Assembly: GCA_964360265.1 (NCBI GenBank)
Contig: CAYHUY010000003.1
Span: 1 to 55,012 of the forward strand
Source: an uncultured Gammaproteobacteria bacterium
Lineage (GTDB): Bacteria; Patescibacteriota; Microgenomatia; Levybacterales; GWA1-39-11
Direction: 5' to 3'
Length of the DNA stretch: 55,012 bases
The notes beneath the pieces were generated by a model that did no database searches, was not told where the DNA came from, and saw only the letters and a list, made by a program, of their open reading frames with translations. Position 1 is the first letter of the stretch. Each line of letters starts with the position of its first letter. A program made the translations under genes and the position numbers. Of the stretch, positions 3,722 to 47,101 are shown piece after piece.

Positions 3722-3748
3722 CCACTAGCAACTAGCAAAGGCGGCAAT

Positions 3749-5104
3749 ATGCTAGATGCCGAAATTATTATGGCAATTAAAACAGCATTTGTGTGTTCAG
3801 GCTGTGGATATGAATCAGGCAAGTGGTATGGTAGATGTCCTAATTGCTCTTCCTGGAACTCTTTTTCTGAGGTAAAACTTGAGACGGCTTCCAAAAAAAT
3901 CCAGTCGGTTTTAGATGTTGCAACTTCGCTTGTACCCACACAGATTGGCAAAATAAAAAGTGCGGGAATATCCCGTTTCACAACCGGGTTCTTGGAGTTT
4001 GACCGCGTACTTGGCGGTGGAATTGTTACAGGTAGTGCAGTTCTACTATCGGGGGATCCCGGGGTGGGAAAATCAACTTTATTACTTGAACTTGCTAAGA
4101 ATTTCGCTCAAAGTTCCAAAAAACAAAAAACTGATAGCCGGGTTCTCTATGTCTCAGGTGAAGAGTCTGAAGGGCAGATTAAGATAAGGGCAGAAAGAAT
4201 TGGGGTAAAAGAAAATGACAGTCTTTTTATATTCGCAAGCGGTGATATTGACCAAGTGATAAGCCAAGCCGCGGCGCTTAAACCCAAACTATTTATAATT
4301 GACTCAATCCAAACTATGAGTTCTGGGCAGTTCCCCGGTTTTGCAGGAAGTCTGCCTCAAATAAGACATGCTACCGCACGCCTTGTATCCTTTGCCAAAA
4401 AGAATGGAATCCCTGTCTTTATAGTCGGACATGTCACTAAAGAAGGCGATGTAGCAGGACCCATGCTCCTTTCCCACATGGTTGATTGTGTATTGTACCT
4501 TGAGGGAGAAAATCTATCAGGGACAAGAATCCTACGCGCTTTTAAGAATAGATTCGGTGATGCCTCTGAAGTTGGAATATTTACAATGGACGAGAACGGA
4601 ATGAAAGAAGTTTCCGACTCTTCTTTCTTTATCGCAGAAGAGAGCCAAAAGGTTCCCGGATCATGCCTCACCGTTCTCATGGAAGGAAGCCGTCCCATAC
4701 TTGTTGAAATTCAATCACTTGTTGTTCCGTCAAGTCTCTCATATCCCCGAAGGGTATCAAACGGGATATCGGAGAAGCGGCTGGAACTCTTGCTTGCAGT
4801 GATTCAAAAACACGCAAAAATCCCACTTGACCGCGTAGATGTGTATATCAATGTTGTCGGTGGTCTTAAGATTAGTGAGACAGCCGCAGATCTTGCAGTT
4901 TGTCTTGCCGCCATCTCTTCATTTAAAAACAAATCAATAAGTGCCGCTCCTGCCATAGCTGAAGTTGGTTTACTTGGCGAATTAAAAGAGGTTGTTAATC
5001 AAAGGGTCCGCATTAAAGAAGCAAAGAAACTTGGTTTCAGGAATATTTTAACAAACGATAGTTGCAAATTCTTAAATGATATAATTAGAACTCATGAAAA
5101 ATAA
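3749..5104 (+). CDS. radA: DNA repair protein RadA/Sms
   Basis: N-terminal zinc ribbon CSGCGYESGKWYGRCPNCSSWNSF, Walker A GDPGVGKST, a KNRFG motif and a Lon-like C-terminal domain. The start may be the ATG at 3770. Confidence 0.9.
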   Translation: MLDAEIIMAIKTAFVCSGCGYESGKWYGRCPNCSSWNSFSEVKLETASKKIQSVLDVATSLVPTQIGKIKSAGISRFTTGFLEFDRVLGGGIVTGSAVLLSGDPGVGKSTLLLELAKNFAQSSKKQKTDSRVLYVSGEESEGQIKIRAERIGVKENDSLFIFASGDIDQVISQAAALKPKLFIIDSIQTMSSGQFPGFAGSLPQIRHATARLVSFAKKNGIPVFIVGHVTKEGDVAGPMLLSHMVDCVLYLEGENLSGTRILRAFKNRFGDASEVGIFTMDENGMKEVSDSSFFIAEESQKVPGSCLTVLMEGSRPILVEIQSLVVPSSLSYPRRVSNGISEKRLELLLAVIQKHAKIPLDRVDVYINVVGGLKISETAADLAVCLAAISSFKNKSISAAPAIAEVGLLGELKEVVNQRVRIKEAKKLGFRNILTNDSCKFLNDIIRTHEK

Positions 5105-5942
5105 ACCTAATCCAGCATCTAGCGGACAAAATTCAACCCCGATTAACTCCGATTCAATAGGGGTAAAATCGGGATCAAAATTAAAAAAATCAAAGAGAAG
5201 CGGAATGGATGTTGTGGCCATTGGTTCCGGGGTATTACAAAACATAATGTTGCCTCCTCGGGTGATTCGCCAAATTGCCGAGGAAGTAGCAAAAACCGTA
5301 ACTAAAAAAATATCGTTAAGAAGAAAAAAAACCCGCAAAGCAAACATAAAAATCGATAATCCCGTATTTCTTGACACGTCGGCAATTATTGACATGAGAG
5401 TTTTTGAATTGGCAAAAATCGGTGCATTGTATGGAACTTTCATTGTGCTTGAAAGCGTGCTTTCAGAACTCAAAAATATTGCAGATTCGCGGGATTCTCT
5501 CAAAAAAGAAAGAGGAAGAAATGCGCTTGATGTGCTAGATAAATTCAAAAAGACTCGCGGAATAAAAGTTAAGATATTAGCTGATACAAGTGCGCGACCA
5601 GTTGATGAGTCTATTATTGATTATGCCAAGAAATATCGCGGCAGAATTATTACGTGCGACTATAATTTGTCCAAAAAGGCTAGGATTTCAGGCGTTAAAT
5701 CAGTAGACCTTTATGAGCTCGCCAATATCTTAAAAACAACTGCCATTCCCGGAGATGAGTTTTTTGTAAAAGTTATTCAGGAAGGTAAAGGGGCGAATCA
5801 AGGAGTAGGTTATTTACCAGATGGCACTATGCTTGTTGTTGAAGAAGCAAAAAGTCTACTTGGAAAAACAGTTCAAGTTCAAGTTTCACGCATTATCCAA
5901 ACAGACGCGGGCAAAATTCTATTCTCCAAACTCAAAACATAA
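5094..5942 (+). CDS. PIN/TRAM domain protein (YacL-like)
   Basis: PIN-like block VFLDTSAIIDMR...ITCDYNL followed by a TRAM-like C-terminus (VKVIQEGKGANQGVGYLPDGTMLVVEE...VQVQVSRIIQT). It lies directly after radA, as in Firmicutes. The N-terminus is basic and low-complexity, so the start is uncertain. Confidence 0.75.
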   Translation: MKNKPNPASSGQNSTPINSDSIGVKSGSKLKKSKRSGMDVVAIGSGVLQNIMLPPRVIRQIAEEVAKTVTKKISLRRKKTRKANIKIDNPVFLDTSAIIDMRVFELAKIGALYGTFIVLESVLSELKNIADSRDSLKKERGRNALDVLDKFKKTRGIKVKILADTSARPVDESIIDYAKKYRGRIITCDYNLSKKARISGVKSVDLYELANILKTTAIPGDEFFVKVIQEGKGANQGVGYLPDGTMLVVEEAKSLLGKTVQVQVSRIIQTDAGKILFSKLKT

Positions 5943-6711: not shown

Positions 6712-9700
6712 CTACTGACTGCGGTATTTGGTCTTTACAAGACCCATAAAGATAAATGAAGATATGAGAATTAGAATTCCAAAGCCTGTGTATTCAAGAT
6801 ACTGAGGAAGATATACAACCACTATCGTGGAATTTCCAATTTCCAATTTCCAATTTTCAATTAGCCACCCGTTGGCCCATCCGTTTACTTCAACATGGTC
6901 CTTGAGTTCGGTTCCAAAAACGAAAGGCAAAGCCACGTTTAGAAAACTTTGAGCTTTGAACTTCCCGCCTGCAACGCTTGCGCTAGCATTGCGGGCAGGT
7001 GAACTTTGAACTTGATATGCTTTCCATCCACGGTCATAGCTTTGGGAAAAGACGAGATACTTTGAAGTGCCGCCCTTTTCTATAGTCAAAGAGTAGAGTG
7101 AAGCATTAATTTTATTACCGGAAATTACCGCAGGTGTCCCCGACACAAGTGTTTGCTTATTTAACAATATTTTCATGTTTTCAATCGTGCTTTCCGGAAC
7201 AGGGAATAAGCTTATATTCTTAAGTACACTCGCGGCCTCTTCAAGACCTGCTGACTTTAATGTAAAATGGAAACCGTATCCTGACAGCTCCGCTTCAGTT
7301 GGCGGCAGTATTATTACATTTTTGTCTTTTGTTTTGGACAATTTAGTCTCAACTTCCGGTCTTCTCCTAAAGGAATTTTCTACATAAAAACCCACGGGCA
7401 GTCCAGACCGATACTGTGAGTCTACAAACATGATATAAGACCCAGGATGCGGTAAGTGATCTAAGTAGAAAGAAAGATCTACGCTAGAATTTGCTCTTGC
7501 CGAAAGCAAGACGCCCGATACATCCTCTCGCGCGGATGCGCGAGCAAGTCCTGGGAACAAATTTTGCGGATCAAGACTATGTTTTATCTCATACAAGTTA
7601 TTCTGAATTATGTTTTGAACAGCAAGCGAGTTATCAAATTTACTTATTACTATCTCTAATTTATTGATTTTATCGGAAGCAATAGGTATGGAATATGATG
7701 TTTTATTAATATTTTCTGTATTTACAGCAATTACTTCTTCCTGTGTGAGACTAGCCACCTTAATAATGTTATTGTAGTTATTGAAAATAAAACCCTTTGC
7801 CGATCCATTTACGATCTCAACCTTATTTTTTGTATCTACAAATTCAATCGATGAAGGGTTTTGGAGTGAAAAATCCACGACGATTTTTTGGTCTTGAGTT
7901 ACATAAACACGGTCATTTATTACAATTGTAGGATAAAGCGGCGAGAAAACAATTTGGTTTCCTACGACTCTTGCTTCCACAGGGATTAAGAATTCGTCTA
8001 CGAATAAAGAGGGCAGCTCAATTGTTGGGTTGTTTGCGGTATCTAAATCGGTAAAGACCTTTTTTGGTCGTAAGATTATCGAATCTTTAGTATCTTGCGC
8101 CTCAAAGTAAATGTCATTCTGGAGTTTTCCTGTATAAAGTGAAGGTAAAATAAATACAGAATCGGGGTTTTTCTCATCGAATACAAAATTCTGCGAGGCA
8201 TTGTACAAAACGTCTTGATTTGTAAAGTGGAAGCCAGGGAATACTTTGGGGGTATTTTGCTGATCGATAACATAAAAATTGCTCTTTTGAGTTTTTACAT
8301 TATAAATAATTAAATTGCCTATCTCGCGTTCTTTTTGAACCATTCCACTTGAATTAAGGAAACTCTCAAGACTAGCGTAGTCAACCATCTCCCGTGACAG
8401 GGAATTTTGAATGGATTTATCAACTAATAGATATTTAATGTTATATTTTTGCAATACTTTATTGAAGTGCTCTTTATCATTTTTGTTTATGGCGTAGGAA
8501 GATTCGTTATAAAATTGTTCATTATAGAAGCTCCACGGGTCAAAGGCGCGATCAAGAAGCGGCTGTCCTATCCCATACCATAAAAATCCGGAACCTATAT
8601 GTCCCCAATCTCTATATTTCCAATTCCAGAATGTAGACGATGGAAGAATTGCGATGCGCGCTTTTTCATCCTGAGTTGAAAAAAAAGAAAAGACCTCTTT
8701 ATATTCCGCGGGCAACTCAAGTCTTAGAAGAGGAGAGAAAAAATAGCCCTTGAAGGCAGGAGCCGCAATCAGGAATAAGAGAATAGTAAATAGTGAATAG
8801 TAAATAGGAGCAAGAATTTTCCAATTTAACTTTGATTTTCGAATCACTTCCGTGAGAATTGAAATTCCAAGGGAGAAAAAGATGGAAAAACAGAATGCAA
8901 AAAGAATTATAAATTTGGTAAAAGGAAACCTTAATGCTTCGGAAATAACAGGGAATAGCGATCTTACGATATCATTGATTTGTGCAAAAAGTGGGGTGTT
9001 ATTTGCAAGAAATACAAATGATACGCCCATACTTATGAGATAGGCAGAATATCTTTTCTCTTTTCTTGCAATAACATATGCCAGTCCAAGCAGCATTATT
9101 AGAATAAATACAAACGTGATTAACCGGATATAAAATTTCCCATAATGCTCTTTCCATTTTTCCATGAAGAAGATATTATTGTTGTTGCGGCTGTCATATT
9201 CGACTGAGTCAAGCATAAAACCCTTAAACGAAAGTACGCTTGTTATGTCGGCTGAAGCTCGATTCCTGTAGAATATTTCTTCTGACGAAAACTGATTTAT
9301 ACGAGTTCCCTGAATTATTTTTGCATTCTGAATTGCCGTGTAAGAATAAGGAAGTAACCAGAATGCGTTGGCAGCCGCAACAGTAAAAGCTACAATAGTT
9401 ATTTTTTTAACATCATGATTTTCAAAGAAATCCACAACAAGAAATGAACCAAAAAGAATCATGAACACGGCAAAAAGAGTAGGTACAAAACCCTGAGCAC
9501 TAACTGCAAAGCTGACTAAAAGAAGAACAAAAAGGTTTCCAGGAGTTGGCTTCTTGAGCGTATTTAGTATGGATAAAGTAAAGATTGGAAGTGCGGCAAA
9601 GTGGACAACAAACACTTCAAGCGGCGCGTAAAACATCTGGATAACACCGAGATTAAACATATAGAAAAAAGCACCAAAGAATGCAACTATTCTTTCGGGG

Positions 9701-10188
9701 TCCTGCGTTTCTTGCGCTCGGGGTCCTGTCGCGGGTTCTCCCTCCCGCCAGTGCTCGCTCATATTCATTCGACTGTGCGCTGTCGGGATCCCTTCCACCC
9801 GCACCACCCCTTCGCGTTTGCCCTGAGATTTTAGAAGGGTCACCCCTCGCTTGATTAATTTTTTAAGGAGAAAATACATTCCGATGCCGCCCGCAAGATG
9901 GAGAACCAGAATAAAAGTGTATCGGAGTAAATTTTGAGGCAAAACGACCGACAGTAAAAATATATAGACGGTATGTGTAAGATTTGCTGCGTGTGACAAA
10001 CCGTCCGGAACCCCCAGACCCCGGTAATCTTGCCAGACGGAAAAGAGAGCGCGTTTAAAATTAAGCGGGATATTAAATTCAGGCATGATATTATCCCATC
10101 CAAGTAAATACGTCCCCGGTATATAGTTTGCAGCAAATAGGATAATTTCAATAAGTAAAATTGTGATAATCGGCCAGATTTTTAGCAT
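6712..10188 (-). CDS. very large polytopic membrane protein, putative GT-C-type glycosyl/arabinosyltransferase-like (AftD/YfhO-like architecture)
   Basis: 1158-aa ORF. It has about 12 N-terminal TM helices with an early loop motif GWDNIMPEFNIPLNFKRALFSVWQDYRGLG, a large extracytoplasmic C-terminal region and a final TM. It sits directly downstream of a GT2 gene. The functional call is inferred from architecture only. Confidence 0.55.
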   Translation of the reverse strand: MLKIWPIITILLIEIILFAANYIPGTYLLGWDNIMPEFNIPLNFKRALFSVWQDYRGLGVPDGLSHAANLTHTVYIFLLSVVLPQNLLRYTFILVLHLAGGIGMYFLLKKLIKRGVTLLKSQGKREGVVRVEGIPTAHSRMNMSEHWREGEPATGPRAQETQDPERIVAFFGAFFYMFNLGVIQMFYAPLEVFVVHFAALPIFTLSILNTLKKPTPGNLFVLLLVSFAVSAQGFVPTLFAVFMILFGSFLVVDFFENHDVKKITIVAFTVAAANAFWLLPYSYTAIQNAKIIQGTRINQFSSEEIFYRNRASADITSVLSFKGFMLDSVEYDSRNNNNIFFMEKWKEHYGKFYIRLITFVFILIMLLGLAYVIARKEKRYSAYLISMGVSFVFLANNTPLFAQINDIVRSLFPVISEALRFPFTKFIILFAFCFSIFFSLGISILTEVIRKSKLNWKILAPIYYSLFTILLFLIAAPAFKGYFFSPLLRLELPAEYKEVFSFFSTQDEKARIAILPSSTFWNWKYRDWGHIGSGFLWYGIGQPLLDRAFDPWSFYNEQFYNESSYAINKNDKEHFNKVLQKYNIKYLLVDKSIQNSLSREMVDYASLESFLNSSGMVQKEREIGNLIIYNVKTQKSNFYVIDQQNTPKVFPGFHFTNQDVLYNASQNFVFDEKNPDSVFILPSLYTGKLQNDIYFEAQDTKDSIILRPKKVFTDLDTANNPTIELPSLFVDEFLIPVEARVVGNQIVFSPLYPTIVINDRVYVTQDQKIVVDFSLQNPSSIEFVDTKNKVEIVNGSAKGFIFNNYNNIIKVASLTQEEVIAVNTENINKTSYSIPIASDKINKLEIVISKFDNSLAVQNIIQNNLYEIKHSLDPQNLFPGLARASAREDVSGVLLSARANSSVDLSFYLDHLPHPGSYIMFVDSQYRSGLPVGFYVENSFRRRPEVETKLSKTKDKNVIILPPTEAELSGYGFHFTLKSAGLEEAASVLKNISLFPVPESTIENMKILLNKQTLVSGTPAVISGNKINASLYSLTIEKGGTSKYLVFSQSYDRGWKAYQVQSSPARNASASVAGGKFKAQSFLNVALPFVFGTELKDHVEVNGWANGWLIENWKLEIGNSTIVVVYLPQYLEYTGFGILILISSFIFMGLVKTKYRSQ
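6831..6862. repeat. heptanucleotide tandem repeat (ATTTCCA)x3 plus a degenerate copy
   Basis: aatttccaatttccaatttccaattttcaatt, which encodes WKLEIGN near the C-terminus of the 1158-aa protein. Confidence 0.85.
6964..6999. repeat. GC-rich imperfect palindrome CCCGCCTGCAACGC...GCATTGCGGGCAGG (encodes PARNASASVAGG)
   Basis: Family members occur at 24788-24821 (opposite orientation), 33120-33160 and 51935-52007. This copy is embedded in a (CTTTGAA)n-like heptamer tract (6940-6963 and 7001-7013). Confidence 0.85.
9700..9845. repeat. ~145-nt GC-rich insertion in a loop of the 1158-aa membrane protein
   Basis: Local G+C is clearly above the rest of the gene. It contains the direct repeat TCGGGGTCCTG (9705-9715 and 9728-9738). 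It shares the CATTCGACT...CGGGA block with the intergenic copy at 37095-37125. Confidence 0.7.
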
Positions 10189-10196
10189 TACTTATA

Positions 10197-11132
10197 TTAT
10201 ACAGATGACGGGGAGATAAAACGTCCGATAAGAAAAGGCATGTGTACGGTTTTTGGTTTGACAATGCCTTTTGCAACTAAATATAAATTTTTGGTGAATG
10301 ATTCGGGAAGCAATAATATAACAGCCCCCTGAATCATATTGAGCGCGATATCTTTTATGGTCGGCTTGTAGTTTTTGTTCAATACCATAGTGATTCTTAT
10401 TTTTAAAGTATTAAGATACTTCTTTTTTATATCAATAAATGTGTCATTTTTATCGTGAATTCTATAATATAGCAGTTTATCCGGAAGGTTCACAAAGATA
10501 TAACCGCTGCAGATCATTTTAAAGAAAGTGTAATAGTCATTGTTAGCGCTGTAATTTATCTGATAGGAAAATTTTTTCCCGCGAAAAATCCTTCTAAATA
10601 CTGCAGTTGGATGAATTATAGGATGGAAGGTTGCATATGCGCGATAAATCTCGAGGGGACGAGTCGGTTCGAGTTTCTCGCCCACAATAGTTCCCCTCTT
10701 ATTAATTACATTGGCACTAGCGCCAACCAGGAATACCCGCTTGTTTTTCTCTAAAAAAGCAACCTGTTTCTCAAGTTTTGTGGGTATGGCTATATCGTCT
10801 GCATCCATTCGCGCTATATACTTCCCGCGCGCAATCTCTATTCCAAGGTTTGCGCACATATCTCCGCCCCGATTTAAATTCTTTCCGGTTTTTATTACCT
10901 TAATTTTTGCCCGGTGGCGTCTTTGGTAATGCTTAATTATTTCACTTGATTTGTCAGTTGATTCATCGTCTATTATTATTAATTCAAAGCGCTTGTAGGT
11001 TTGAGTCATAATACTCTCGATCGCTTCTGGTAAATACTTTTCCGAATTATAAACGGGCATGACCACGGAAACTAAAGGAGGGCGTTTCTTCCTCCTTGCG
11101 AAAGATTTATTTTTTATAAATAAATTCTTCAT
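10197..11132 (-). CDS. family 2 glycosyltransferase
   Basis: VSVVMPVYNSEKYLPEAIESIMTQTYKRFELIIIDDESTDKS and a DADD motif (classic GT-A/GT2), followed by C-terminal hydrophobic segments. Confidence 0.85.
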   Translation of the reverse strand: MKNLFIKNKSFARRKKRPPLVSVVMPVYNSEKYLPEAIESIMTQTYKRFELIIIDDESTDKSSEIIKHYQRRHRAKIKVIKTGKNLNRGGDMCANLGIEIARGKYIARMDADDIAIPTKLEKQVAFLEKNKRVFLVGASANVINKRGTIVGEKLEPTRPLEIYRAYATFHPIIHPTAVFRRIFRGKKFSYQINYSANNDYYTFFKMICSGYIFVNLPDKLLYYRIHDKNDTFIDIKKKYLNTLKIRITMVLNKNYKPTIKDIALNMIQGAVILLLPESFTKNLYLVAKGIVKPKTVHMPFLIGRFISPSSV

Positions 11133-11199
11133 AAGAGCTACTCTTAAGATCGCGATGAGCTTGTCGAATCGTGAGCTTAAGAGTAAAGGTATACAGGTT

Positions 11200-11256
11200 G
11201 AGTGAAAGTTGTTCGCGTGAAGCGAACGGATCGTCTTTTGGACGAAACTTTCACTT
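11200..11256. other. compact three-helix (three-way junction) structured element at the left island end
   Basis: P1 is 11200-11210 paired with 11246-11256 (11 bp, one G:T). P2 is GTTCGC-GTGAA-GCGAAC (11211-11227). P3 is TCGTC-TTTTG-GACGA (11231-11245). The only junction nucleotides are GGA. Confidence 0.5.
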
Positions 11257-11461
11257 ACGCGTGTTTACTTTACCCATCTAGAGTCAGACCATTTATGGTA
11301 TCTTGCGCTGCAAGCTTTTGCAGAATAGAACCAAAAGATAGGCTAACTCAGTGTGTTTTTCTAATAGGCTCCCCGAGGGGGAGAGAAGGGCTCAGCTAGA
11401 CTTTCGTCTGCTTTGCATGTTCGATTTTATTCGAACCATCAGCCTCCTCAAAACGCACTGG

Positions 11462-11638
11462 CTAGATCCCCAGGAAACCCGAAAGCACCCACAAGACTAT
11501 CGCTATGATCACCAGTGTGAACACCAGCTCAAGGATGCCTCGTGAGAGCCAATTGTTCTTGATCTTTCGATCAAGGTCCTCAAGGAATTGCTCAATCGGA
11601 TCTCCTCTCAGGATCGAGATAACCTTGCTGCGGTTCAT
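11462..11638 (-). CDS. hypothetical 58-aa protein with a C-terminal TM helix (island gene)
   Basis: Not in the ORF track because it is under 60 aa. My translation is MNRSKVISILRGDPIEQFLEDLDRKIKNNWLSRGILELVFTLVIIAIVLWVLSGFLGI. It starts 7 nt after the upstream stop, with AGGAAG upstream. Confidence 0.4.
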   Translation of the reverse strand: MNRSKVISILRGDPIEQFLEDLDRKIKNNWLSRGILELVFTLVIIAIVLWVLSGFLGI

Positions 11639-11644
11639 TGCTTC

Positions 11645-12586
11645 CTACCTGGGGGGTAGGGAGCTCTGGTCGTAAGCCTGTTTGGCTGCATCTGCGCACG
11701 CCGCCGGCCATGACCAAGAGGTTCCACCACCCATGAGAGGAGCGTTGTTCCCGGGAGACAGGAGGATCTTGCGTTCCTGCTGGTCTTGTCCGGGTTCGTT
11801 GGTCCAGAAATTGACCACTCGCCACTCACCCGTAGGGACCCATCCCTGACCGACAACCGGTTCGCGAGTCTCCTTAACGCCAATGTCGCAATTGACCGAT
11901 CCCGCAGCAGATCCCTGAGCGGGTTGTTGTGCCGGAGCCGCCGCCGCCATTTGTGGGATCGGAATTTCGAATCCGCTCTCGCCCTTACGCATGGCTGCCG
12001 AGTGGATTGCCAAAAGCGACATGATGTCGTCCTGGCTCAGGTTCCGCAGGTTCGCCACGACCGTTGGAGGGTTGCTCCTGAGATCGATGACGAGTCCCGA
12101 GTGGCCGCTGTCGAGGCGAGCTTCCGCGTATGCGGTTGCGTCCGTAGTCCAGTTAAAACTGGCGCATTCGGGCGTGTCGCCTTCCCAAAGGCTGCCGTAG
12201 CCCCAGGCTATGTCGGGCACGCCGTCCGGATTGGCGATTTTGTCGATGATGTAGCTCACCGCGTAGATCCTAGCCGGCTGGTACTGAGGGTAGAAGTCCA
12301 GGTGTTGTCCACCATGGCCTCCAACCTCAATTCGGTGCGGGTTATTGCCCTCGCTCCATGTGCCGACCTTGTCAAGCCTGCAGGCGTCGCCTGACCCGTT
12401 TGCGAACGGGTTCTGTATGCCTGCGTCTAGCACGCCGGACGTCGCCGTTGCCGTGGGTGTCGCGGTTTGCTGTGCCGTCGTCGTTTTCACGCCGTCGTCG
12501 TCGAGAGCAAGGACAACAAGGCCGATCAGGGATCCGACCAGAATGACGGCCACGCTTGCTCCTAAGCTCCATCTAAGTAGATTCAT
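11645..12586 (-). CDS. hypothetical N-terminally anchored/secreted protein (313 aa, island gene)
   Basis: N-terminal TM ASVAVILVGSLIGLVVLAL, a Thr/Ala/Pro linker, then a Cys- and Trp-containing globular region. A strong SD (AAGGAGG) lies 6 nt before the ATG. I recognise no motif. Confidence 0.7.
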   Translation of the reverse strand: MNLLRWSLGASVAVILVGSLIGLVVLALDDDGVKTTTAQQTATPTATATSGVLDAGIQNPFANGSGDACRLDKVGTWSEGNNPHRIEVGGHGGQHLDFYPQYQPARIYAVSYIIDKIANPDGVPDIAWGYGSLWEGDTPECASFNWTTDATAYAEARLDSGHSGLVIDLRSNPPTVVANLRNLSQDDIMSLLAIHSAAMRKGESGFEIPIPQMAAAAPAQQPAQGSAAGSVNCDIGVKETREPVVGQGWVPTGEWRVVNFWTNEPGQDQQERKILLSPGNNAPLMGGGTSWSWPAACADAAKQAYDQSSLPPR

Positions 12587-12687
12587 TGTCTGCCTCCTTT
12601 AAGGCTTGAACTGAACGCTCCGCAAGATTCCATTAGGAATCTCAACGTGCATGCCTACCGATGTTTATCTCGATCGGATCACCTCTT

Positions 12688-13701
12688 TTACGGTGCCTGC
12701 TGCTTTCCGCCGAGTATGGTCGCGGGGTCGATGATGATCCCTTGACCGCTTGGCAGAAACGCGATCTGGACATTATCCGCCAGCTTCTGAAGCGCCTGGA
12801 ACTGGATCAAGAGAGGTGTGAGACTCTCGTTGATGAGCCGGTTGGCGTCTGCCTGACCCTGCGCCTCCGTACGCAGTCTCTCGGCTTCACCTTTTGCGGT
12901 CTCGACCCTCTGTTCGGCCTGGTTCTTGAAGAGCTCGATCTTGTTCTCCTCGGTGATGGCGTTCTGCTCTGCAATCACCTTGTCCTGAATCGCTTTTGCG
13001 TATTCAGGGTCGAAGGACAAGTTGTAGATACCGATCTTGGTAACGGTGATCGCATAACCTGCGTCGTCCAGAACTTGCTGCATCCGAGTCCGCACGGACT
13101 CTCGAAGTGCCTCTCGGTTTTGAGCGATTACCGTGCTGTCGTAGTCTGTCGTCTCTTCCTTCAGAATGTTGGGAAGCTCTGTTACGAACAGCTTGCCGAA
13201 GTAGTCCGGGCCGACGTTGTCCAGGATGTTCTCGACTGCTTCCCGGTCGACCTTGATGTTGATGGTGACATCCATGTAGACGTCTTGGTTGTCGTCACTG
13301 AATGTTTCCATCCGACCGGCGCGGAAATGTACACCTGAGAAGTCAGCGTCCTCGCGGTGTTCCGGTGCAACCCAGCCGAACGATTGCTCTCGTACATCCT
13401 GGCTCTTCACTTCCTGCCAAGGCGCCGTTACGACGAGTCCGCTCCCGGTGGTACCCGTCACAGCCTTGAATGTGTAGATGGCTCCGACGTGTCCGTTGGG
13501 TACCTGATGGAACATTGACGCCAAGGTGAAGATGAGCCAGAGCACGATAGCAAAGACCGAACCGCCCCATCGCAAAAGAGATCCAGCTTCTTCGGCTTCA
13601 GATTGCTCCTTCCGTCCTACTGAGCGGACCAATGTCCCAACCACGATAACGACGGGTATGACCACTACGAACATGGTGATCGAGAATATTATCCAACCCA
13701 C
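12688..13701 (-). CDS. SPFH / band-7 (prohibitin-like) membrane protein
   Basis: N-terminal TM, a PHB-type core (GHVGAIYTF...VTAPWQEVKSQDVREQ...VYMDVTINIKVD...), then a coiled-coil tail (IAEQNAITEENKIELFKNQAEQRVETAKGEAERLRTEAQGQADA). GTG start with an AGGA upstream. Confidence 0.85.
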   Translation of the reverse strand: MGWIIFSITMFVVVIPVVIVVGTLVRSVGRKEQSEAEEAGSLLRWGGSVFAIVLWLIFTLASMFHQVPNGHVGAIYTFKAVTGTTGSGLVVTAPWQEVKSQDVREQSFGWVAPEHREDADFSGVHFRAGRMETFSDDNQDVYMDVTINIKVDREAVENILDNVGPDYFGKLFVTELPNILKEETTDYDSTVIAQNREALRESVRTRMQQVLDDAGYAITVTKIGIYNLSFDPEYAKAIQDKVIAEQNAITEENKIELFKNQAEQRVETAKGEAERLRTEAQGQADANRLINESLTPLLIQFQALQKLADNVQIAFLPSGQGIIIDPATILGGKQQAP

Positions 13702-13789
13702 TGTGAATTTCCTTTCCTCTTCACGTCTTCGTGAAGGCTAGACTTGCTTGCTGTGGTGTTTGCCGGTGTGTTTGCCGCGCCTGTTTACC

Positions 13790-13918
13790 TCACGCCGTTC
13801 TTGCGTTTTTCCCTCCTCCGTTACGCTTTTCCTGACGCTTCTTCCGGGCGGACATACACTTGCAGGCTTTTTGGGCCTTGCGTCCTTTTCTCTTCGCTTC
13901 CGTCTTGCCGTTTGCCAC
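13790..13918 (-). CDS. possible 42-aa highly basic peptide (island), speculative
   Basis: GGAGG lies 4 nt upstream of GTG. My translation is VANGKTEAKRKGRKAQKACKCMSARKKRQEKRNGGGKNARTA. There is no other support. Confidence 0.2.
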   Translation of the reverse strand: MANGKTEAKRKGRKAQKACKCMSARKKRQEKRNGGGKNARTA

Positions 13919-14034
13919 GATGCCTCCTTGCGTCTATTTCCTCACTTACGGATTCATTCGGTTGTGTTTTTTGACCAACCCCCTTTCATGGGTTTCTTCG
14001 AGTTGCCGAAGTCTCTTCGGTTTTTGGCCGAAGG

Positions 14035-14295
14035 CTAAAATGCCGCTTTGACGATTAGCCAAATAGACACTCCTGCAATGATTGACAGTGCCGAAACGGT
14101 ATTACGGTACCTATCCAGTGCCTCAATTAGGCGCTGAAGCCGTGGAAACCTTGTCACTAGTTCATGCCTCCTTGCGTACTTTCCTGCCGACTTGTCTTCT
14201 AGTTTCGATTCCTTTCCTTCTCCCTCCTTTTTCTCTAAATGCCGGACAACGCGTACCGTGTGCAGTTTCAACTCACAGTACGCTGTATCCGACAC
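14035..14295 (-). CDS. hypothetical 86-aa tail-anchored protein (island edge)
   Basis: GTG-start ORF with a C-terminal TM (VSALSIIAGVSIWLIVKAAF). Composition is intermediate and no SD is present, so support is weak. Confidence 0.35.
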   Translation of the reverse strand: MSDTAYCELKLHTVRVVRHLEKKEGEGKESKLEDKSAGKYARRHELVTRFPRLQRLIEALDRYRNTVSALSIIAGVSIWLIVKAAF

Positions 14296-14450
14296 CTAAA
14301 GTGTAAGAGAGAATTTTTTAATTTATAGATTATCTTTGTCCTTCGTCTTCTTTAAAAGCTGACTACGCGAACATCAATAATTGCCTATTAGGGACGCACC
14401 ACAAGGGTGCATCCTTCTGTATACCTTTTGTTAAAGAACAACTAGCGGTT

Positions 14451-14471
14451 AGCAACTAGCAACTAGCATCT
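14451..14471. repeat. heptanucleotide tandem repeat (AGCAACT)x2 plus AGCATCT
   Basis: Read directly. The same ACTAGCAACTAGCA unit occurs at 3724-3737 between rpsA and radA. Confidence 0.8.
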
Positions 14472-14664: not shown

Positions 14665-15354
14665 TTAATTTGCTTTTCGTCTTAAGTAAATTCCTGCAAG
14701 CCCTGTAGGGATAAGTCCAAAGAGAAATGCCATTTCCGGGCCAGTTGCCGGAACCTCTTTTACTTTTTGTTTTTCAAAGATTTGTGGAGCAGGAGTTGTG
14801 CCTAAAACTTGCTTTTCAATACAAATTTGCGCTGAATCCTGTGCAACTGATCCTTCAGACACAGAAGCTTTTACCACATTTTGAGTACACGTAACAGTTT
14901 GGTTTGCAGGAAGCAGACCTTGCTCTGCGGTTTTGGCAGCAATGATGAATTCCCGCTTCTCACCCTTAACTAGAGTTCCTACGGCAAAATTTATTTGTTT
15001 TGCGCCTGCATTAGCATTTCCGACTCCCGCTACAAAGGTTAAAAATTCGCCAAATTCATCAACCACATTAAGATTTGTTATGTCTCGGTCGCCGGTATTT
15101 TCAATCACGATTCTGAAATTAACGTTTTGACCAGGCGCAAATTTTGGATCGTGAGTTGTGAGGTTTTCAACAAATTCCCCACCCTTGCCGCTTTTTTGCA
15201 CCAGTTTATTAATAGTGAATTTTACTTGTTTGGGAGGACAAACTTCACCGCCGCCGTAGGCAATTTGACAATTGGATTCGCCTGCTGCTGTGACAGTTCC
15301 TACTGCAACAAAGAATATTGCTATGGTTGCAAGAAGTGTAGATATTTTCTTCAT
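14665..15354 (-). CDS. secreted cell-surface protein with a DUF11/CARDB-like fold and a sortase-type C-terminal sorting signal
   Basis: Signal peptide MKKISTLLATIAIFFVAVGTVTAAG. Central block NVNFRIVIENTGDRDITNLNVVDEF. The C-terminus is VPATG, then a hydrophobic stretch, then the RRKAN tail (LPXTG-like). Confidence 0.75.
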   Translation of the reverse strand: MKKISTLLATIAIFFVAVGTVTAAGESNCQIAYGGGEVCPPKQVKFTINKLVQKSGKGGEFVENLTTHDPKFAPGQNVNFRIVIENTGDRDITNLNVVDEFGEFLTFVAGVGNANAGAKQINFAVGTLVKGEKREFIIAAKTAEQGLLPANQTVTCTQNVVKASVSEGSVAQDSAQICIEKQVLGTTPAPQIFEKQKVKEVPATGPEMAFLFGLIPTGLAGIYLRRKAN

Positions 15355-21041: not shown

Positions 21042-24000
21042 TTAATTCACTATTATCCAGTTGAATTTAATGTCTGTTGTAGTTGATGGAATATTTATGC
21101 CGACCGTAAATGAACCTTCCGCCCCCGCCTGCAAAGGATCTTCCGCTGTCTGTCTCAAAAGATATAAAACCCTACCATTTGTATTCCCAACAGGCGTTAT
21201 ATAGATCAATGAGTTTTCGGTAACATTTTGATTCTTGATGGTAATCTCACCTCTATATTGTTTTACGATCGCCGCTCCGGCTGATCCAGAAGCCACGGCT
21301 TCGATATCAGAAATGGCGAGAGCCTGCCTGGCTAGCGATAGATTTAATTTATTGAATGTACCGGAACCCGAAGCAACAAGTGCACCCCTAACATCAACTA
21401 ACGTGTCATCGTAAATCCCGTCCGCGGCGCTTGTTGCGGTCCCAGATTTGATAATAAGATTTTGGTTAGGTAGAGGAGAAATTATGTTCGCAGAAAGTGT
21501 CCCTCTAATGCTTACGTTGGAGGCAAATTCTGCGCTATTCAAAACCTTAAGCGTTCCATCTGTTTCAATCCTTACGTACCCTGCCATAAATGATATCGAG
21601 CCTTGTTTAAGCGGTTGAATTTCAAGAGTTTCGGAAAGTGTATTAATCGAATTCGGTCCGATCAGAAGCGTGGTGCCAACAGACATGCTATCAAGAGCAG
21701 TTATTTGATTAAATGTTGCAGGACCAAAAGCTATCAAACCCGATCGTATTGTAGCAAAATCTGCCGAAAGATTTTTTATGTCTAAGAAATCAAATTCTCC
21801 GCCTAAACTTGACACGTTATACGTGTTGCTTGATATTGATCCCGCAGCAATACTGGCGATCTTGGCTTCCAGTCCATCAATCGAATTAGCTTGGATCCGA
21901 TCAGCGTACAATGTTCCTGAAATTGTAGCCTGGTTAGCACTCAAATTATCGGTTGCTAATTCTCCCGATATTGAGGCACCGTTCGAACTCAAAATACCAG
22001 AGAACGTGGCCCGCCTCGCTTCGAGATCTCCGGCGAAGCGGGCATTCCCGGTATTATCAATTGATGCAACAACAGCTGAATCGCTAGCGCTCGAATTTTT
22101 AATTTCCAGTTTCGAATTTGCAAGATCAATAGCAATGTTCGATCCATCCGCAAGAGGAGATATGATATTGGTTCGGATTTGATCAATTGAGGCAAGAGGA
22201 GAAACAATAGATTCGCCAGTATTGAGTATTGAGTATTCAGTATTCAGTATAATTGCAACAGTAGATGCGATATAGTCGGAAAGACTTTGTCCTGCAATAG
22301 TTACAGAATCCGTAGCGACATTAAGACTAGATGCAAAAACATTACCTGCGTTTATCACTCCAAGAGTAAGGCTCTCAAGTTCTCCGGCGATACTTTTATG
22401 ATATGTGGAGCTATCTATATATACTATAATTTTTCCGATGCCATTTGCGTTGTAGTCTGCAAGCGCAAAGCCCGCTATTTTACCAGATCTGGTTGCTTTC
22501 ATACCAACACCTGGGATTGATGAGGACGTTATAGGATCGCCGATTTGAATCGGACCATTCTCAACTGAAACCTTAAGATGCACGCGGCCGGATAACGCCA
22601 CCGCGCGAGGATTTTTGGCGTAATCGTATATGTCCCTTCCAAAAGTTTGATAAGGACTCGATGAAACTATACCTATTATATTATTTTGATACGGTTCAGT
22701 TGATTCGGTCAGGATCGCAATTTGAGATTCAACTTTGCCCGCTAGTTCTCCGCTTTCCGGATTGGTTTTTTGGGCCATATAGGTTATCTTATTATTTGTC
22801 GCAACAAGAATTTCCGCTTCTTGTGCTCCGGCGGTTGTTTCATACCATTCGGCGATATCTGCAGGTGCACCCGAGCATGCGACAATATCACGATCAGCAA
22901 ATGTTCCATCGGAGTTTGCGCCCGAGTGACAGAGGCCGTTAGTTGTTGCAGGTTCGTTGGCATCTAATCTGATGTCGCCATTGACTTCCAATTCTTGACC
23001 TGGCACACTCACGCCAATTCCAACTTTTCCGCTTCCTCCTAAAGCGCTTAGAATAATATTTCCTGTACTTGTTCCTCCTATGGTAAGAGTATTATTATTG
23101 AGAGACTGTATTGTTGCAGTTGATGCATTAAGCGATAGTCCGTTGCTATTTATAGTAGCAAATATGGAAACCATTGGATTACCATTGCCAACTCCTGTTA
23201 TCGCAAATTCAGCACTTGCGGTTGCCCGTGAACCAATCAAGAGATCCATAGTGGAGTTATTAGAAAATAACGTTCCTGATCCCTGACCCCAAGCTAAATC
23301 ACAAGTGCCCCACAAGGGGTTTCTATCCCCCGAGAGAAGACAAAGTGATGGAGCGGAAGTGATTGCTTGACTAAGTATACCCGTGCCATTAGAGCCGTAT
23401 AAAACCCCATTTTTTTCTGTAAAGGCCGGTAATATTATCTCTTGACCCAACCGACCCAGAGAGAGAGTTGTTGCCAACGTACCTCCAATGCTCAGAGTTC
23501 CGGTTGAAATAGTGTCAAGCAAAGCTCCTGCTGCAAAACTTATGTCGCCATCGTTTGCTATTACGAAACGATTCGTGCCCGATGATGAAGCTGTGAAAAT
23601 ATCCCCACCAGTTGTATCGTTATTGATAACAAAAGCCGCGACGGCTGATTCTGTTGCAAGCACACTCATCTTATCATTAATCTCAACAGAACCGGGGGCG
23701 AGATTTCCAGTTGCGCTCGTATTAACTAATGGTTTTTCAATATTTATTCTGCCAATTCCATCTGGAATAATATTAATATCCCCATCAGAACTGTCTTCGG
23801 TTGCAAGGACTAAGGTTTTTCCGGAAATCTTAAATCGCCCACCGGTTGCGGCAAAAGTGGGATTAGCAGACCCTGCAAAAGTTAAATTGCCGGATGAATC
23901 AAGAGCCAAAATAACATTTTTACCTTTGGGAGAATCTGTAATAGGCAACATTCCCTGAAGAGTTTCGGAATTTTTGGCATAGGACACAGAAGGGAGTTTC

Positions 24001-31890: not shown

Positions 31891-33102
31891 ATGGTCAATG
31901 AACAAGCTCCGCGAACTTTCGAGCGGCAAGTGCCCGCGGGTGAAATAATTTTGGCGGAAGGAATTCCGACCCCTATTTCGCAGGATCCATCTTTTGAAAA
32001 CACTCAGGTCTTTTTTTCCGCACTGTCTTTTCCTATTGATTCAAAAAATCCGCCAAAGCCGTTTGGGTACAAAAAGTTAGGAGGTCAAACACGTGAGGGA
32101 TGGGCCCGAAACTGGGATATCCTTGGAAGGCACCTGGGTACTGATGCGGTTCTAGAAGAAGCAGGGGCGAATGAAATTACAAGAGAAAGAGTCCGCCAGA
32201 TCACGAAAACCTTAATCAACCAATCATATGATTCCGCTCCTGCAGCCCTAAAAGAAGCTTTCTCGCGAGCCAGTCTTGGGACAAGGAAACCATATTCTAT
32301 TCATAAAGGCATGCGGCGGTCGGAAGCAAAAGGTGGAAAAATGCGTGAGGTAAAAGAGGCCGTATTAGCAGGAAAAAGCATTGCAGAGATCAAAGAGGAG
32401 ACGGGAGTTTCAAGTCAGACGATTGCCAACTGCAGATCGAAAGGGATAGCTGTCCCCTATGCCAAAGAGGGACTTGGGAGAGAGTACCAGAGAAACCTAA
32501 GGTTTCTTGCAAGCGGATTACTTGACGATAGACAAATTCTTGCAATATTCGAGGACATAGAGAAGCATAATCGGAGTCAAGTTTGCCGGAGTTTAAAGAA
32601 AGCCGGAGCGCTTGTGTCCCTTGGTAAAGCTGCCCGAAGTGTTGGGGTATTTATCCACTTGTTTGAATCCGCCGCATACAGACTTATGAAAGAGCTAGGT
32701 ATTCCTACAGTCCAGGTGCATAGGACATTTGACAATGCCGACGTAAGTGGAGCTAAGGAAACACTAAGAAACTATTTCTACGTGCTCAATAACCATGAAG
32801 GTACAAGGCATGCATTTGCCCACCCGTCATTTGATGCGTTTAGGACAAATCCTGTAGAGGTATTAGGAAGAGTTCCAGAAGAAATCCCAACAACAAGTAT
32901 TCTGCAAGATCCTGCGTATATACCCGTGGGAAAATTCCTAAAAAAAAGAGGGATTCCCATCAGATCGGAGGAGGTAAGAAAATATTTGAGTTCTGATTTC
33001 CCCGTGCCTGTTTTCTTCATATTCCAAGGACGTAATTTACTTGTTCGAAAGGACGACTCAGACGCTTTGGCAGTATATTTTGAAACAAAACTTTCTTCTT
33101 GA
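31891..33102 (+). CDS. hypothetical protein with sigma-70 region-4-like and additional HTH segments
   Basis: 403-aa ORF. ITRERVRQITKTLINQ resembles sigma region 4.2. KSIAEIKEETGVSSQTIANCRSKG is a second HTH-like segment. The rest is unrecognised. Confidence 0.55.
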   Translation: MVNEQAPRTFERQVPAGEIILAEGIPTPISQDPSFENTQVFFSALSFPIDSKNPPKPFGYKKLGGQTREGWARNWDILGRHLGTDAVLEEAGANEITRERVRQITKTLINQSYDSAPAALKEAFSRASLGTRKPYSIHKGMRRSEAKGGKMREVKEAVLAGKSIAEIKEETGVSSQTIANCRSKGIAVPYAKEGLGREYQRNLRFLASGLLDDRQILAIFEDIEKHNRSQVCRSLKKAGALVSLGKAARSVGVFIHLFESAAYRLMKELGIPTVQVHRTFDNADVSGAKETLRNYFYVLNNHEGTRHAFAHPSFDAFRTNPVEVLGRVPEEIPTTSILQDPAYIPVGKFLKKRGIPIRSEEVRKYLSSDFPVPVFFIFQGRNLLVRKDDSDALAVYFETKLSS

Positions 33103-42674: not shown

Positions 42675-43412
42675 ATGTTAGAGAAGACAAATATCTTAGG
42701 AGTAGGTATAACAGTGGCAAAAGAAAAAAAAATCCTAGAGTATGTACTTAATGAACTTATTAAGCCTAAAAAAGAGCGCAAGAAAATAATTATTTTTACT
42801 CCAAATCCCGAGCAGATTTCGGCAGCCACGAATCTTAGTCTGAGAAAGCTTCTTAACAGAGCTCAGATTTCATTGCCCGATGGGGTGGGGGTTTTAATAG
42901 GAGCAAGACTATTAGGGAGGCCAATTTACGCACGGATTACAGGAGTAGATTTCTTAAAAAAACTCTGTGAAAACGTTTCAAAACGGCCCGTCATTACGGG
43001 CTTTTTAGGTGGTCAACCACGCGTAGCAAAAGAGTGTGCCGAGTGCTTGCAAAAAATATGGCCGGAACTGCGCGTTGGATACGCTTCCGAGCTCTACGAC
43101 AAGAGGAAGTTGATCCATTCTGATATAGATATTCTCTTTGTTGCTTTTGGTTTTCCAAAACAAGAAAAATGGATATTGAAACACAAGCGTGAAATTCCAG
43201 CAACAGTTATAATGGCTGTTGGGGGAGCATTTGATTTCATTTCAGGCGGAGTGCCGCGTGCTCCAAAAATTGTTCGAAAATTTGGATTCGAGTGGATATT
43301 CAGACTAATAATTCAGCCGTGGCGAATTTTCCGACAGCTTCATATTTTGCATTTCAGCGCCTTAGTTTTTGCAGAAGCACTAACTAACCGTCTCAAAAGA
43401 TTCAAAATATAA
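42675..43412 (+). CDS. WecB/TagA/CpsF family (GT26) glycosyltransferase
   Basis: FTPNPEQI, LPDGVGV, RITGVDF, FLGG, FGFPKQEKW, AVGGAFDFISGGVPRAP and EWIFRLIIQPWR are classic family blocks. Confidence 0.85.
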   Translation: MLEKTNILGVGITVAKEKKILEYVLNELIKPKKERKKIIIFTPNPEQISAATNLSLRKLLNRAQISLPDGVGVLIGARLLGRPIYARITGVDFLKKLCENVSKRPVITGFLGGQPRVAKECAECLQKIWPELRVGYASELYDKRKLIHSDIDILFVAFGFPKQEKWILKHKREIPATVIMAVGGAFDFISGGVPRAPKIVRKFGFEWIFRLIIQPWRIFRQLHILHFSALVFAEALTNRLKRFKI

Positions 43413-46317: not shown

Positions 46318-46591
46318 AGGACGGAATCTATATAGGATATTGACTTTCGGCACGACACCTAGGTATACTTTTCATGCTCTTAAGTAATGTTGTAGGTGAC
46401 TTGTTTTCCTCTACAACTTTTCCGATAAGGTATCGGCTCACAAAGAGCTGAAAAGGGATGTTTTTAAATTGACCCCGTGGGGTCAAATTAGCATCTTCCT
46501 AATTTTAAGTCGGGGAAGCGTTTCCTACAATTGCTTAAGGGCGGCTTTATCAGGTAGATATTAGGGGCTAGATACTAGAAAATAGGGAGTG

Positions 46592-46664
46592 AGCCGACTC
46601 AGGGATTCGAACCCTGGACCTACGCTTTACGAAAGCGCCGCTCTACCAACTGAGCTAAGTCGGC
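46592..46664 (-). tRNA. tRNA-Thr (anticodon CGT)
   Basis: Hand-folded cloverleaf: acceptor GCCGACT/AGTCGGC, D arm GCTC-AGTTGGTA-GAGC, anticodon arm GCGCT-TTCGTAA-AGCGT, variable AGGTC, T arm CAGGG-TTCGAAT-CCCTG, discriminator T. No CCA is encoded. Confidence 0.9.
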
Positions 46665-47100: not shown

Positions 47101-47101
47101 G

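Follow-up and report, generated by a model that had tools for sequence, protein, structure and literature searches.

Replacement-type flexible genomic islands (O-antigen, capsule, 'glycotype') keep a fixed position between conserved flanks while holding unrelated content in related genomes, encode products exposed on the envelope, adjoin glycosyltransferase genes, have an atypical G+C content and are exchanged by recombination without an integrase. We describe a locus that resembles them, with products predicted to be exposed, in the 55,012-nt contig CAYHUY010000003.1 (the whole stretch, hereafter the window), from a genome of the Candidate Phyla Radiation (CPR, or Patescibacteria), whose members are abundant, mostly uncultured bacteria with largely unknown hosts and attachment molecules. 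The locus, which we call the island, is a GC-rich segment of the minus strand (11350-14300; 50-63% G+C), defined by composition profiles, codon usage and the G+C content at third codon positions (GC3). We favour, as probable although far from certain, that the island is the local content of a hypervariable slot for envelope genes, with a fixed position in Microgenomates (Levybacteria-like) CPR genomes. On one side, the slot is bounded by the gene for a DUF11/CLIPPER surface protein, accompanied in some genomes by one for a VirD4-like ATPase, and on the other by an operon comprising a family 2 glycosyltransferase gene (GT2) and a gene for a polytopic membrane protein of about 1100 aa. It always contains at least one gene for an exported protein, predicted to be anchored in the membrane or of lipoprotein type, with Thr/Pro/Ala linkers of low complexity. 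Here the core is a 313-aa protein, with an SPFH scaffold gene and several mini open reading frames (ORFs) as accessories.

As in flexible islands, the position of the slot is fixed while its content is non-homologous among relatives, and this content has been exchanged laterally relative to the backbone. Conversely, the G+C content of the slot is above that of the genome, whereas that of flexible islands is below; its cargo consists of anchored proteins and an SPFH scaffold instead of sugar pathways, and is led by Shine-Dalgarno (SD) sites, unlike other genes of these genomes; and, far from being limited to strains, the slot is kept between genomes that diverge at the class level, whose flanking proteins are only 31-44% identical. 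The slot is thus close to replacement-type flexible islands, and its compositional and translational signature sets it apart from them. A surface-protein locus richer in G+C than its genome is also known from Borrelia, where the vls surface-lipoprotein locus has about 49% G+C in a 28.6% G+C genome and is, according to its authors, actively maintained (PMC11499132); however, the slot lacks a silent cassette array, partial copies (in the window) and a coding-strand GC skew, and its cargo families are unrelated. With classical genomic islands, which are linked to tRNA genes and bear an integrase, the slot shares a deviant G+C content and codon usage and an accessory content that varies between relatives, but it has no integrase, tRNA gene or direct repeats, nearly all relatives have the site filled and with a deviant composition, and its cargo is partly vertical. 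Within CPR bacteria, a Gracilibacterium encodes a hypervariable extracellular protein, anchored by its N-terminus and bearing a Pro/Thr-rich repeat, for which a role in contact with a partner cell has been proposed (PMC6851277). Slot proteins are likewise anchored, variable CPR exoproteins with Pro/Thr-rich stretches, but the variation of the Gracilibacterium protein consists of repeat number and nucleotide changes in one gene of one population, and no island or slot was described. Our search of the literature retrieved reports on general CPR gene transfer, on type IV secretion and on the Gracilibacteria gene, and no description of a GC-rich, SD-led slot.

The preliminary description of this DNA had reported an abrupt switch in G+C delimiting a block of about 3.2 kb with five ORFs on the minus strand, all of which we found at the coordinates it named, and the composition profiles agree with it. 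The window has a mean G+C content of 41%, and the flanks of the island of around 38%; the 1-kb bins at 11-14 kb reach 0.50, 0.58, and 0.53, against 0.32-0.46 in the remaining bins of the window, and with 150-nt windows the G+C content is at least 0.48 between approximately 11350 and 14270, with a maximum of 0.63. The genes coding for the 313-aa, the SPFH (337-aa) and a 58-aa product each have a GC3 of 0.68, compared to 0.25-0.46 in 38 other long ORFs of the window. The foreign look attributed to the island extends to its codon usage, with C-ending codons for Tyr, Phe, Asp, and Asn (TAC, TTC, GAC, and AAC) representing 78-93% of their two-fold pairs in the island vs. 29-32% in host genes, and AAG having a share of 79% vs. 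29%. G-ending codons (AAG, CAG, CTG, and ACG) are also more frequent; in particular, ACG amounts to 37% of Thr codons in the island vs. 18% in host genes. As a side observation, the window contains two tRNA-Thr genes 0.5 kb apart (46591-46664 and 47101-47173), with anticodons CGT and TGT, so that a dedicated reader of ACG is kept in the genome. The enrichment also reaches the spacers within the island, with 0.48-0.51 G+C vs. 0.26-0.41 in host intergenic DNA; the GC skew of the segment is near 0, with no coding-strand skew, and G+C is down to the host level within about 150-300 nt of slot-gene edges. There are no partial copies of island genes elsewhere in the window, where the segment is therefore single-copy, and the idea of silent cassettes was dropped for this reason.

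The island is equally atypical in its translation signals. SD-like motifs precede four of the five island ORFs vs. only two of 37 host ORFs (Fisher P = 6e-4), in keeping with the contrast previously drawn between SD-led island genes and leaderless host genes; the statement that all island ORFs are SD-led fails only for an 86-aa ORF, which has no such motif. Likewise, among the relatives described below, an SD-like motif lies 5-20 nt before the start of 23 of the 27 slot genes, often as a full AGGAGG or GGAGG, but of only one of the 21 flanking genes (Fisher P = 2e-8). Instead, the ATG of many host genes is preceded, at 5-10 nt, by a TATAAT-like box (e.g., upstream of 1896-2444, 5094-5942, 6712-10188, 31891-33102, and 42675-43412) which, together with the lack of SD sites, suggests that the host transcriptome is largely leaderless.

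The surroundings of three database relatives of the 313-aa protein placed its gene immediately ahead of GT2 and of the gene for the protein of about 1100 aa, and a named Levybacteria genome conserves the complete gene order. An alignment of the big flanking membrane protein led to 17 syntenic loci from species-representative genomes, labeled as Levybacteria, Roizmanbacteria, Gottesmanbacteria, or Microgenomates, with several mislabeled as Gammaproteobacteria; a metagenome scan with the 313-aa family added eight more loci, and a further look-up one more (L043; numbers preceded by L or P designate our loci and proteins, respectively). The Gammaproteobacteria label is carried by several CPR genomes of the species collection. 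Genes are in the same order in genome and metagenome loci and in L043: Rho, CLIPPER, a variable region, GT2 and the big protein; the CLIPPER gene is syntenic in L005, L009, L012, L014, L015, L021, L024, L025, and L035, and the GT2 gene adjoins the slot in nearly all relatives. Relatives of the 313-aa protein are encoded in 16 other loci, on low-GC contigs; in every one of them the gene is in the slot, immediately upstream of GT2, and in nearly all of them it is enriched in G+C. The DNA just upstream of GT2 is richer in G+C than the GT2 and big-protein genes taken together, with a difference of 15 points or more in 21 of the 23 loci with enough upstream sequence, for example with 65% vs. 24% in L020 and 71% vs. 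35% in L024, in hosts that range from 24 to 46%. At its shortest, the GC-rich stretch measures about 0.7 kb and holds a single gene (L017, L018, and L020); at its longest, it measures 5-6 kb and holds five (L012, L025, and L043). Slot genes have a GC3 of 0.55-0.87, which does not track that of the host and, over the approximately 8-23 kb covered in each of 17 loci, GC3 outliers were found only in the slot, or as the SPFH genes of L038, L039, and L041, with one exception in L025. The extreme case is a slot lipoprotein from a complete chromosome labeled Gammaproteobacteria (L024, 6953-8926; OZ246401.1), with a GC3 of 0.87 against a genome median of 0.33 and no homolog among 5.8 billion proteins. 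Therefore, predicted slot genes differ from their host genomes in G+C content, codon usage and translation start, and they do so in nearly every lineage.

Nearly every slot gene encodes a signal anchor or a lipoprotein signal with a lipobox, followed by a linker rich in Thr/Pro/Ala or Gly/Asn/Ser, and slot proteins contain conserved Cys pairs; from these signals, we infer that slot products are exposed on the surface. No Pfam match was found for the slot genes of relatives. Their all-against-all comparison resolved a handful of domain families (at least five unrelated), which appear in differing combinations, plus orphan genes. Two of these domains make up the 313-aa protein; a third is found in L013, L014, L015, L018, L020, and L026, a fourth in L015, L023, and L025, and a fifth in L016 and L017. 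We disregarded three opposite-strand ORFs of relatives (170 aa in L009, 179 aa in L037, and 160 aa in L012) that look like antisense artifacts of GC-rich genes.

The 313-aa protein is the putative core product of the slot in the window (11645-12586, minus strand). Its gene has an AAGGAGG 6 nt ahead of the ATG. The protein has an N-terminal membrane anchor (a single predicted transmembrane segment, aa 10-28), from which a Thr/Ala/Pro linker leads to two domains that contain Cys residues and are predicted to be extracellular. It has no match in Pfam, PHROG, NCBIfam, or PADLOC. Its family is small, with 50 database relatives and, when 1.84 billion representatives are searched, 229 clusters (50% identity), and has no member on IMG/VR viral contigs or in GenBank phages. 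An AlphaFold2 (AF2) model built from 35 sequences, with a mean predicted local distance difference test score (pLDDT) of 82.6, contains two confident domains (aa ~69-200 and 230-313), which have conserved cysteines and also occur singly or repeated in other members of the family. The model has no similar fold in PDB or in the BFVD viral structure library (best E = 0.007, TM about 0.1).

This core gene appears to have been inherited with its flanks. In comparison with the closest relatives, L029 and L008, its synonymous divergence (dS) is 0.56-0.63, similar to that of GT2 (0.43-0.44) and of the big protein (0.79, vs. L008), indicating that it was already in place in their common ancestor; the G+C content of its four-fold sites is likewise 0.62 in the window copy and 0.60-0.62 in L029 and L008. 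The slot as a whole does not behave in this way. L009 and L012 are close relatives, with neighboring ATPases that are 87.5% identical, and have no slot gene in common; the identities of domain A and GT2 across ten loci are uncorrelated (rho = -0.07), and in the pair L030/L031 domain A is 85% identical vs. 61% for GT2. Together with the mosaic SPFH alleles described below, these comparisons of predicted genes show that the content of the slot turns over between lineages, being exchanged as gene-sized and domain-sized pieces.

The 337-aa product (12688-13701, minus strand), a putative accessory, is an SPFH/Band 7 (prohibitin-type) membrane protein, as previously proposed: it spans positions 2-176 of the 176 of PF01145 (8.7e-25; 88.2 bits, cut-off 23.6), matches phrog_200 (4.9e-45), and has two N-terminal hydrophobic segments. 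Like prohibitin, HflK/C and stomatin, it thus consists of a full Band_7 domain after N-terminal hydrophobic segments, but its gene lacks an NfeD-type partner and the recurrent downstream partner is an exported anchored protein or a small lipoprotein (window, L009, L037, and L038). It is not an equivalog of HflK or HflC, since the respective NCBIfam scores of 35.8 and 15.6 bits are far below the cut-offs of 159.4 and 134.4, and a link to defense was discarded, PADLOC giving only a marginal and evidently spurious match to Cas8b (E = 0.0077). Relatives were found at 66-82% identity, and the three with a readable context (L009, L010, and L037) adjoin a VirD4-like ATPase gene, that of L009 lying within the slot. 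The window and L009 proteins are 75% identical, with an unsaturated dS of 0.88, whereas for this genome pair the synonymous sites of Rho are saturated and CLIPPER and the big protein are only 41% and 29% identical, which indicates that the SPFH gene was exchanged laterally. Its nucleotide similarity to L009 ends within 4 nt of the ORF ends; that to L010 (85% identity) comprises only the first two thirds of the gene, and the C-terminus of P0057 derives from a different allele, so that SPFH alleles are mosaic. Hence the SPFH gene, as far as these alignments tell, is an accessory that is exchanged laterally between Levybacteria lineages.

More distant SPFH relatives occur in diverse contexts. P0070, with 51% identity, forms with a small lipoprotein a two-gene islet of 57% G+C in a genome of 36-39% G+C (L038, 5155-7300, and L039, 1-2100), located 300 nt from a tRNA gene and with its composition switching, in L038, exactly at the start codon. 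L038 and L039, which come from two samples, share an identical stretch of 2038 nt that ends within the lipoprotein ORF; beyond this point they differ, one of them running into a type I restriction-modification system. Another relative (45% identity) lies between Rho and a Crp-like gene on another low-GC contig. Outside low-GC contigs, SPFH genes with 42 and 37% identity are found in L040, a 78-kb phage-like contig with a uniform 58% G+C, which also encodes RtcB, SbcD-like and ParB-methyltransferase genes, and in L044, a 41-kb IMG/VR contig with a uniform 60% G+C. The IMG/VR scan additionally retrieved one AT-rich contig with a 24%-identical SPFH, GenBank phages encode SPFH proteins only at about 25% identity, and the named relatives at 35-43% identity are labeled Dehalococcoidia or Chloroflexi. 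From these comparisons, the predicted SPFH subfamily is present in GC-rich genomes and viruses, to which its CPR versions are only distantly related, while being closely related among themselves. The 'Dehalococcoidia' label of P0084, a 78%-identical SPFH, rests on a 1.6-kb contig that was perhaps misbinned.

An abrupt change in composition could also arise by misassembly, if a CPR contig had been joined to a piece of a GC-rich genome, and the contigs of relatives do often end inside the slot (L008 and L029). However, an exact-protein look-up of the 313-aa product retrieved contigs from Logan SRR32696699, SRR32696697, and ERR3858111 and from ENA ERZ1292618 (name beginning with Hain_H52_01um), so that four independent assemblies, from different runs and projects, carry the island with 99.99-100% identity to the window, the sole difference with the ENA contig being T/C at 13769. 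All four cross the junction with GT2 and two of them cross both junctions, from Rho/CLIPPER to GT2/big protein, while an equal architecture is seen in complete chromosomes of relatives (e.g., OZ246401.1); the assembly chimera contemplated in the preliminary description can be set aside with near certainty. The same description had noticed an exact 12-bp inverted pair, and considered that the segment could be a mobile cassette of the non-autonomous type, which would end in these repeats and have hairpins next to them. The two arms, AAAGGTATACAG at 11185-11196 (plus strand) and its exact reverse complement at 14417-14428 (minus strand; 122 nt upstream of the 86-aa ORF and beside a 9-bp hairpin), are the only copies in the window, each has a hairpin next to it, as noticed, and an exact 12-nt inverted pair between the two bounding intergenic regions has a probability of about 0.008 (20,000 first-order Markov simulations; post hoc). 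Against a cassette, the core of the repeat is the palindrome GTATAC, which is its own reverse complement and leaves only six informative positions, and there is no target-site duplication, the outer flanks ...TTAAGAGT and TGTTAAAG... being different as read from the sequence. The GT2-side arm is part of the conserved leader/promoter region of GT2, 53 nt ahead of its start, and L008 and L029 keep it at an equal distance. No other arm recurs among the fetched loci, and the second one has no counterpart in any relative covering that side. Additionally, homology with relatives stops at gene boundaries and not at the repeat, and the arms, although present, do not delimit the island as had been stated, since GC-rich DNA starts about 150-250 bp inward of each of them. 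Pfam and PHROG scans detected neither integrase nor transposase inside the island, as already remarked, we found no flanking direct repeats around it, and tRNA and Rfam scans gave no RNA genes near it. With no empty site among relatives either, a mobile cassette is highly improbable, and we treat the 12-bp pair as chance or as a shared regulatory motif rather than as transposon ends. If the 3.2-kb block had been acquired recently, as a whole and in one event, from a donor of high G+C, this would account for its atypical G+C content, codon usage and ribosome-binding sites and for the fact that the nearest named relatives of its SPFH are from Chloroflexi. Yet 21 of 23 relatives are also GC-rich at this slot, the 313-aa gene is a positional ortholog that diverged together with its flanks, and the parts of the island have different histories, lateral for SPFH and not for the 313-aa gene. 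Likewise, no donor is closer than sister CPR genomes: the best homologs of both large island proteins are in sister loci with the same local composition, an outcome that the preliminary description had named as a refutation. A single transfer, which is contradicted for the 313-aa gene, is accordingly very unlikely for the block, and island detectors based on composition would wrongly label slots of this type as recent transfers.

The origin of the compositional signature itself admits several explanations. The slot could be a landing pad for envelope genes captured from GC-richer, SD-using genomes or viruses, such as those of the host of the episymbiont, of co-resident bacteria like Chloroflexi or of their viruses, with the footprints of the donors kept renewed; we see this as a real possibility, albeit a doubtful one. 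Import would explain at once the co-occurring signatures in G+C content, codon usage and SD sites, and agrees with a slot GC3 independent of that of the host, with the presence of the SPFH subfamily on the 58-60% G+C viral or phage-like contigs L040 and L044 and in proteins labeled Dehalococcoidia/Chloroflexi, and with a related SPFH islet next to a tRNA gene. Nevertheless, SPFH is the only slot family found outside the slot, on GC-rich contigs or in viral collections, and its GC-rich relatives are only 37-43% identical; the L024 slot gene, with the highest GC3, lacks homologs altogether, the 313-aa gene co-diverged with its flanks from its closest relative, and the Dehalococcoidia-labeled P0084 comes from the possibly misbinned contig. 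Alternatively, slot genes could be native, and selection could maintain for them a distinct codon usage and stable mRNAs that are GC-rich and SD-led, for instance due to a very high or condition-specific expression of major surface proteins while the rest of the genome is leaderless; surface-layer genes of other bacteria are known for strong ribosome-binding sites and stable leaders. The enrichment of transcribed parts, including operon spacers, while promoter regions are AT-rich, the boundary of L038 exactly at the start codon, the canonical and correctly spaced SD motifs and a codon shift that is strongest for C-ending two-fold codons all favor such an expression class. We nonetheless rate it as rather improbable: G-ending codons also increase, fitting a general GC shift better than tRNA-matched selection, the gene for ribosomal protein S1, presumably highly expressed, has a GC3 of only 0.38, and the slot occupant of L021 has a host-like GC3. 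The slot might also be a recombination hot spot where GC-biased gene conversion, by repair of heteroduplex DNA, raises the local G+C content. The mosaic SPFH alleles, shuffled domains and lateral exchange between lineages are in line with this idea, as are the intermediate G+C content of the 150-nt margins of most slot genes, at both ends, the enriched spacers and the precedent of Borrelia, whose vls cassettes have 49% G+C against 28.6% for the genome (PMC11499132). But G+C returns to the host level within about 150-300 nt, even though the 5′ end of GT2 should be a recombination arm, the SD sites are left unexplained, and, unlike vls, there is neither GC skew nor silent cassettes. To our knowledge, a GC3 shift of 0.3-0.5 is far above any reported for bacterial gene conversion bias, and we consider this explanation unlikely. 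More speculatively, slot genes could be written in the dialect of another cell, either because they were captured from a GC-richer partner, so that the composition of the slot would be a fingerprint of the episymbiont's host, or, in a more extreme form that points to the VirD4-like ATPase beside the slot in many relatives, because they are tuned for expression inside the partner, in the manner of transfer DNA (T-DNA); taken jointly, the two forms are a long shot. Were import true, the identity of the host could be read from sequence alone. In any case, a GC-rich, SD-led signature within AT-rich, leaderless genomes offers a natural test case for import, mRNA selection and biased gene conversion.

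Returning to the hypervariable envelope-gene slot, the island would be an envelope module made of a tethered exoprotein, an SPFH scaffold and small membrane peptides. Its content would be swapped by recombination, and not by means of an element bounded by inverted repeats. The anchored exoprotein would be displayed on the cell surface, perhaps glycosylated by the adjacent GT2 and big membrane protein, while the SPFH protein may organize the membrane patch that holds it, and diversifying pressure from partner cells or phages could drive the turnover. As a class, SPFH proteins assemble into oligomeric scaffolds attached to the membrane, and O-glycosylation typically targets linkers rich in Thr/Pro. 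Glycosylation outside the membrane is usually carried out by a GT2 together with a large polytopic transferase. Several points weigh against this interpretation. The functional part is read from predicted products, and no glycosyltransferase fold can be assigned to the big membrane protein, whose topology alone fits a GT-C enzyme (AF2 pLDDT of 41 from a single sequence). The slot gene of L021 (7679-8815; 378 aa, secreted) is a clear exception with a GC3 of 0.26, so that the GC signature is not universal, and the neighborhoods viewed span about 20 kb, such that further GC-rich, SD-led genes may lie elsewhere in these genomes. The SD comparison relied in part on starts chosen by us, although it still gives 14 of 16 slot genes with public gene-caller starts only. 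Additionally, the inverted pair has the low chance probability given above, and the empty-site alleles whose search had been advised were not seen, 21 of 23 loci holding a GC-rich occupant; no close relative spans the CLIPPER-side junction, and strain-level alleles were outside our view. If the slot is as we propose, its fast-evolving anchored exoproteins beside glycosyltransferase genes make it a concrete place to seek molecules for partner contact or phage recognition. From a practical standpoint, GC-rich islets of this kind break assemblies and may be misbinned into GC-rich genomes.

The three small ORFs of the island complete its predicted gene content. Directly following the 313-aa gene, the 58-aa ORF (11462-11638, minus strand) has a GC3 of 0.68 and an AGGA motif upstream; it was missed by the gene caller in L001-L004, but L008 and L029 carry at the same position a 56%-identical counterpart (over 41 aa), and it is probably a real gene. 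The other two, of 42 aa (13790-13918, minus strand; very basic, with 16 Lys/Arg residues) and 86 aa (14035-14295, minus strand; called as a gene in L001 and L002), have no detectable homologs in any fetched locus. The 42-aa ORF starts with a GTG preceded by a canonical AGGAGG, although its coding status is uncertain, while the 86-aa ORF lacks an SD at its long start. The 313-, 86- and 58-aa products are each predicted to have a single transmembrane segment, placed as stated in the preliminary description and C-terminal in the two smaller ones. The 14-mer ACGCAAGGAGGCAT, which bears an AAGGAGG, has exactly two copies on the minus strand, one being the ribosome-binding region of the 42-aa ORF (13920-13933) and the other situated inside the 86-aa ORF (14164-14177). 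The latter is 9 nt before an in-frame GTG that opens an alternative 40-aa ORF (14035-14157, minus strand), which suggests that the true product is a membrane peptide of 40 aa and not of 86 aa.

The conserved flanks of the island are also encoded on the minus strand. The GT2 gene (10197-11132; 311 aa, PF00535, 2.7e-33) has a host-like composition, with a G+C content of 0.37 and a GC3 of 0.39, and no SD site. It is followed by that of the big membrane protein (6712-10188; 1158 aa), which is predicted to cross the membrane about nine times in its N-terminal part and once more at its C-terminus, with a large domain outside. This protein has no sequence match in Pfam, NCBIfam or PDB, a PDB profile search giving only noise. 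At the other end lies the gene for the DUF11/CLIPPER surface protein (14665-15354; 229 aa, PF01345, 1.1e-08), which has a sorting-signal-like C-terminal tail. A protein of about 720 aa with a host-like composition, a DUF87/DUF8128/TrwB-type ATPase (VirD4- or HerA-like), is a recurrent neighbor of the slot in relatives and is absent from the window; its gene is located next to the slot in L005/L012, L009, L010, L014, L015, L024, and L037, and after the big protein in L016, L017, L018, and L020.

The leader of GT2 contains a hairpin (11138-11186, minus strand) that ends 5 nt before the ATG and abuts the GT2-side repeat arm. Its predicted folding energy of -17.2 kcal/mol (z = -3.3) compares with -18.0 kcal/mol (z = -3.6) for the version of L029; it is also kept in L008, and at least two pairs show compensatory changes on both sides, with pairing kept. 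The hairpin is a possible regulatory element, and could regulate the GT2/big-protein operon. Ahead of the island operon, in an AT-rich stretch, a consensus scan identified a promoter-like site (14329-14356, minus strand), with TTTAAA and GATAAT separated by 16 nt. At a distance of 6.4 kb, a 1503-aa ORF (21042-25553, minus strand) has as its sole Pfam match an integrase N-terminal SAM-like DNA-binding domain (aa 132-228), with no catalytic integrase domain even at E = 1. Lastly, the motif AACTAGCAACTAGCA, which belongs to a short run of CAACTAGC-like units, is located between the CLIPPER gene and the island (14454-14468); it is absent from the fetched relatives and recurs with one mismatch at 3723-3737, just before a RadA-like gene, whereas no recurrence is expected by chance.

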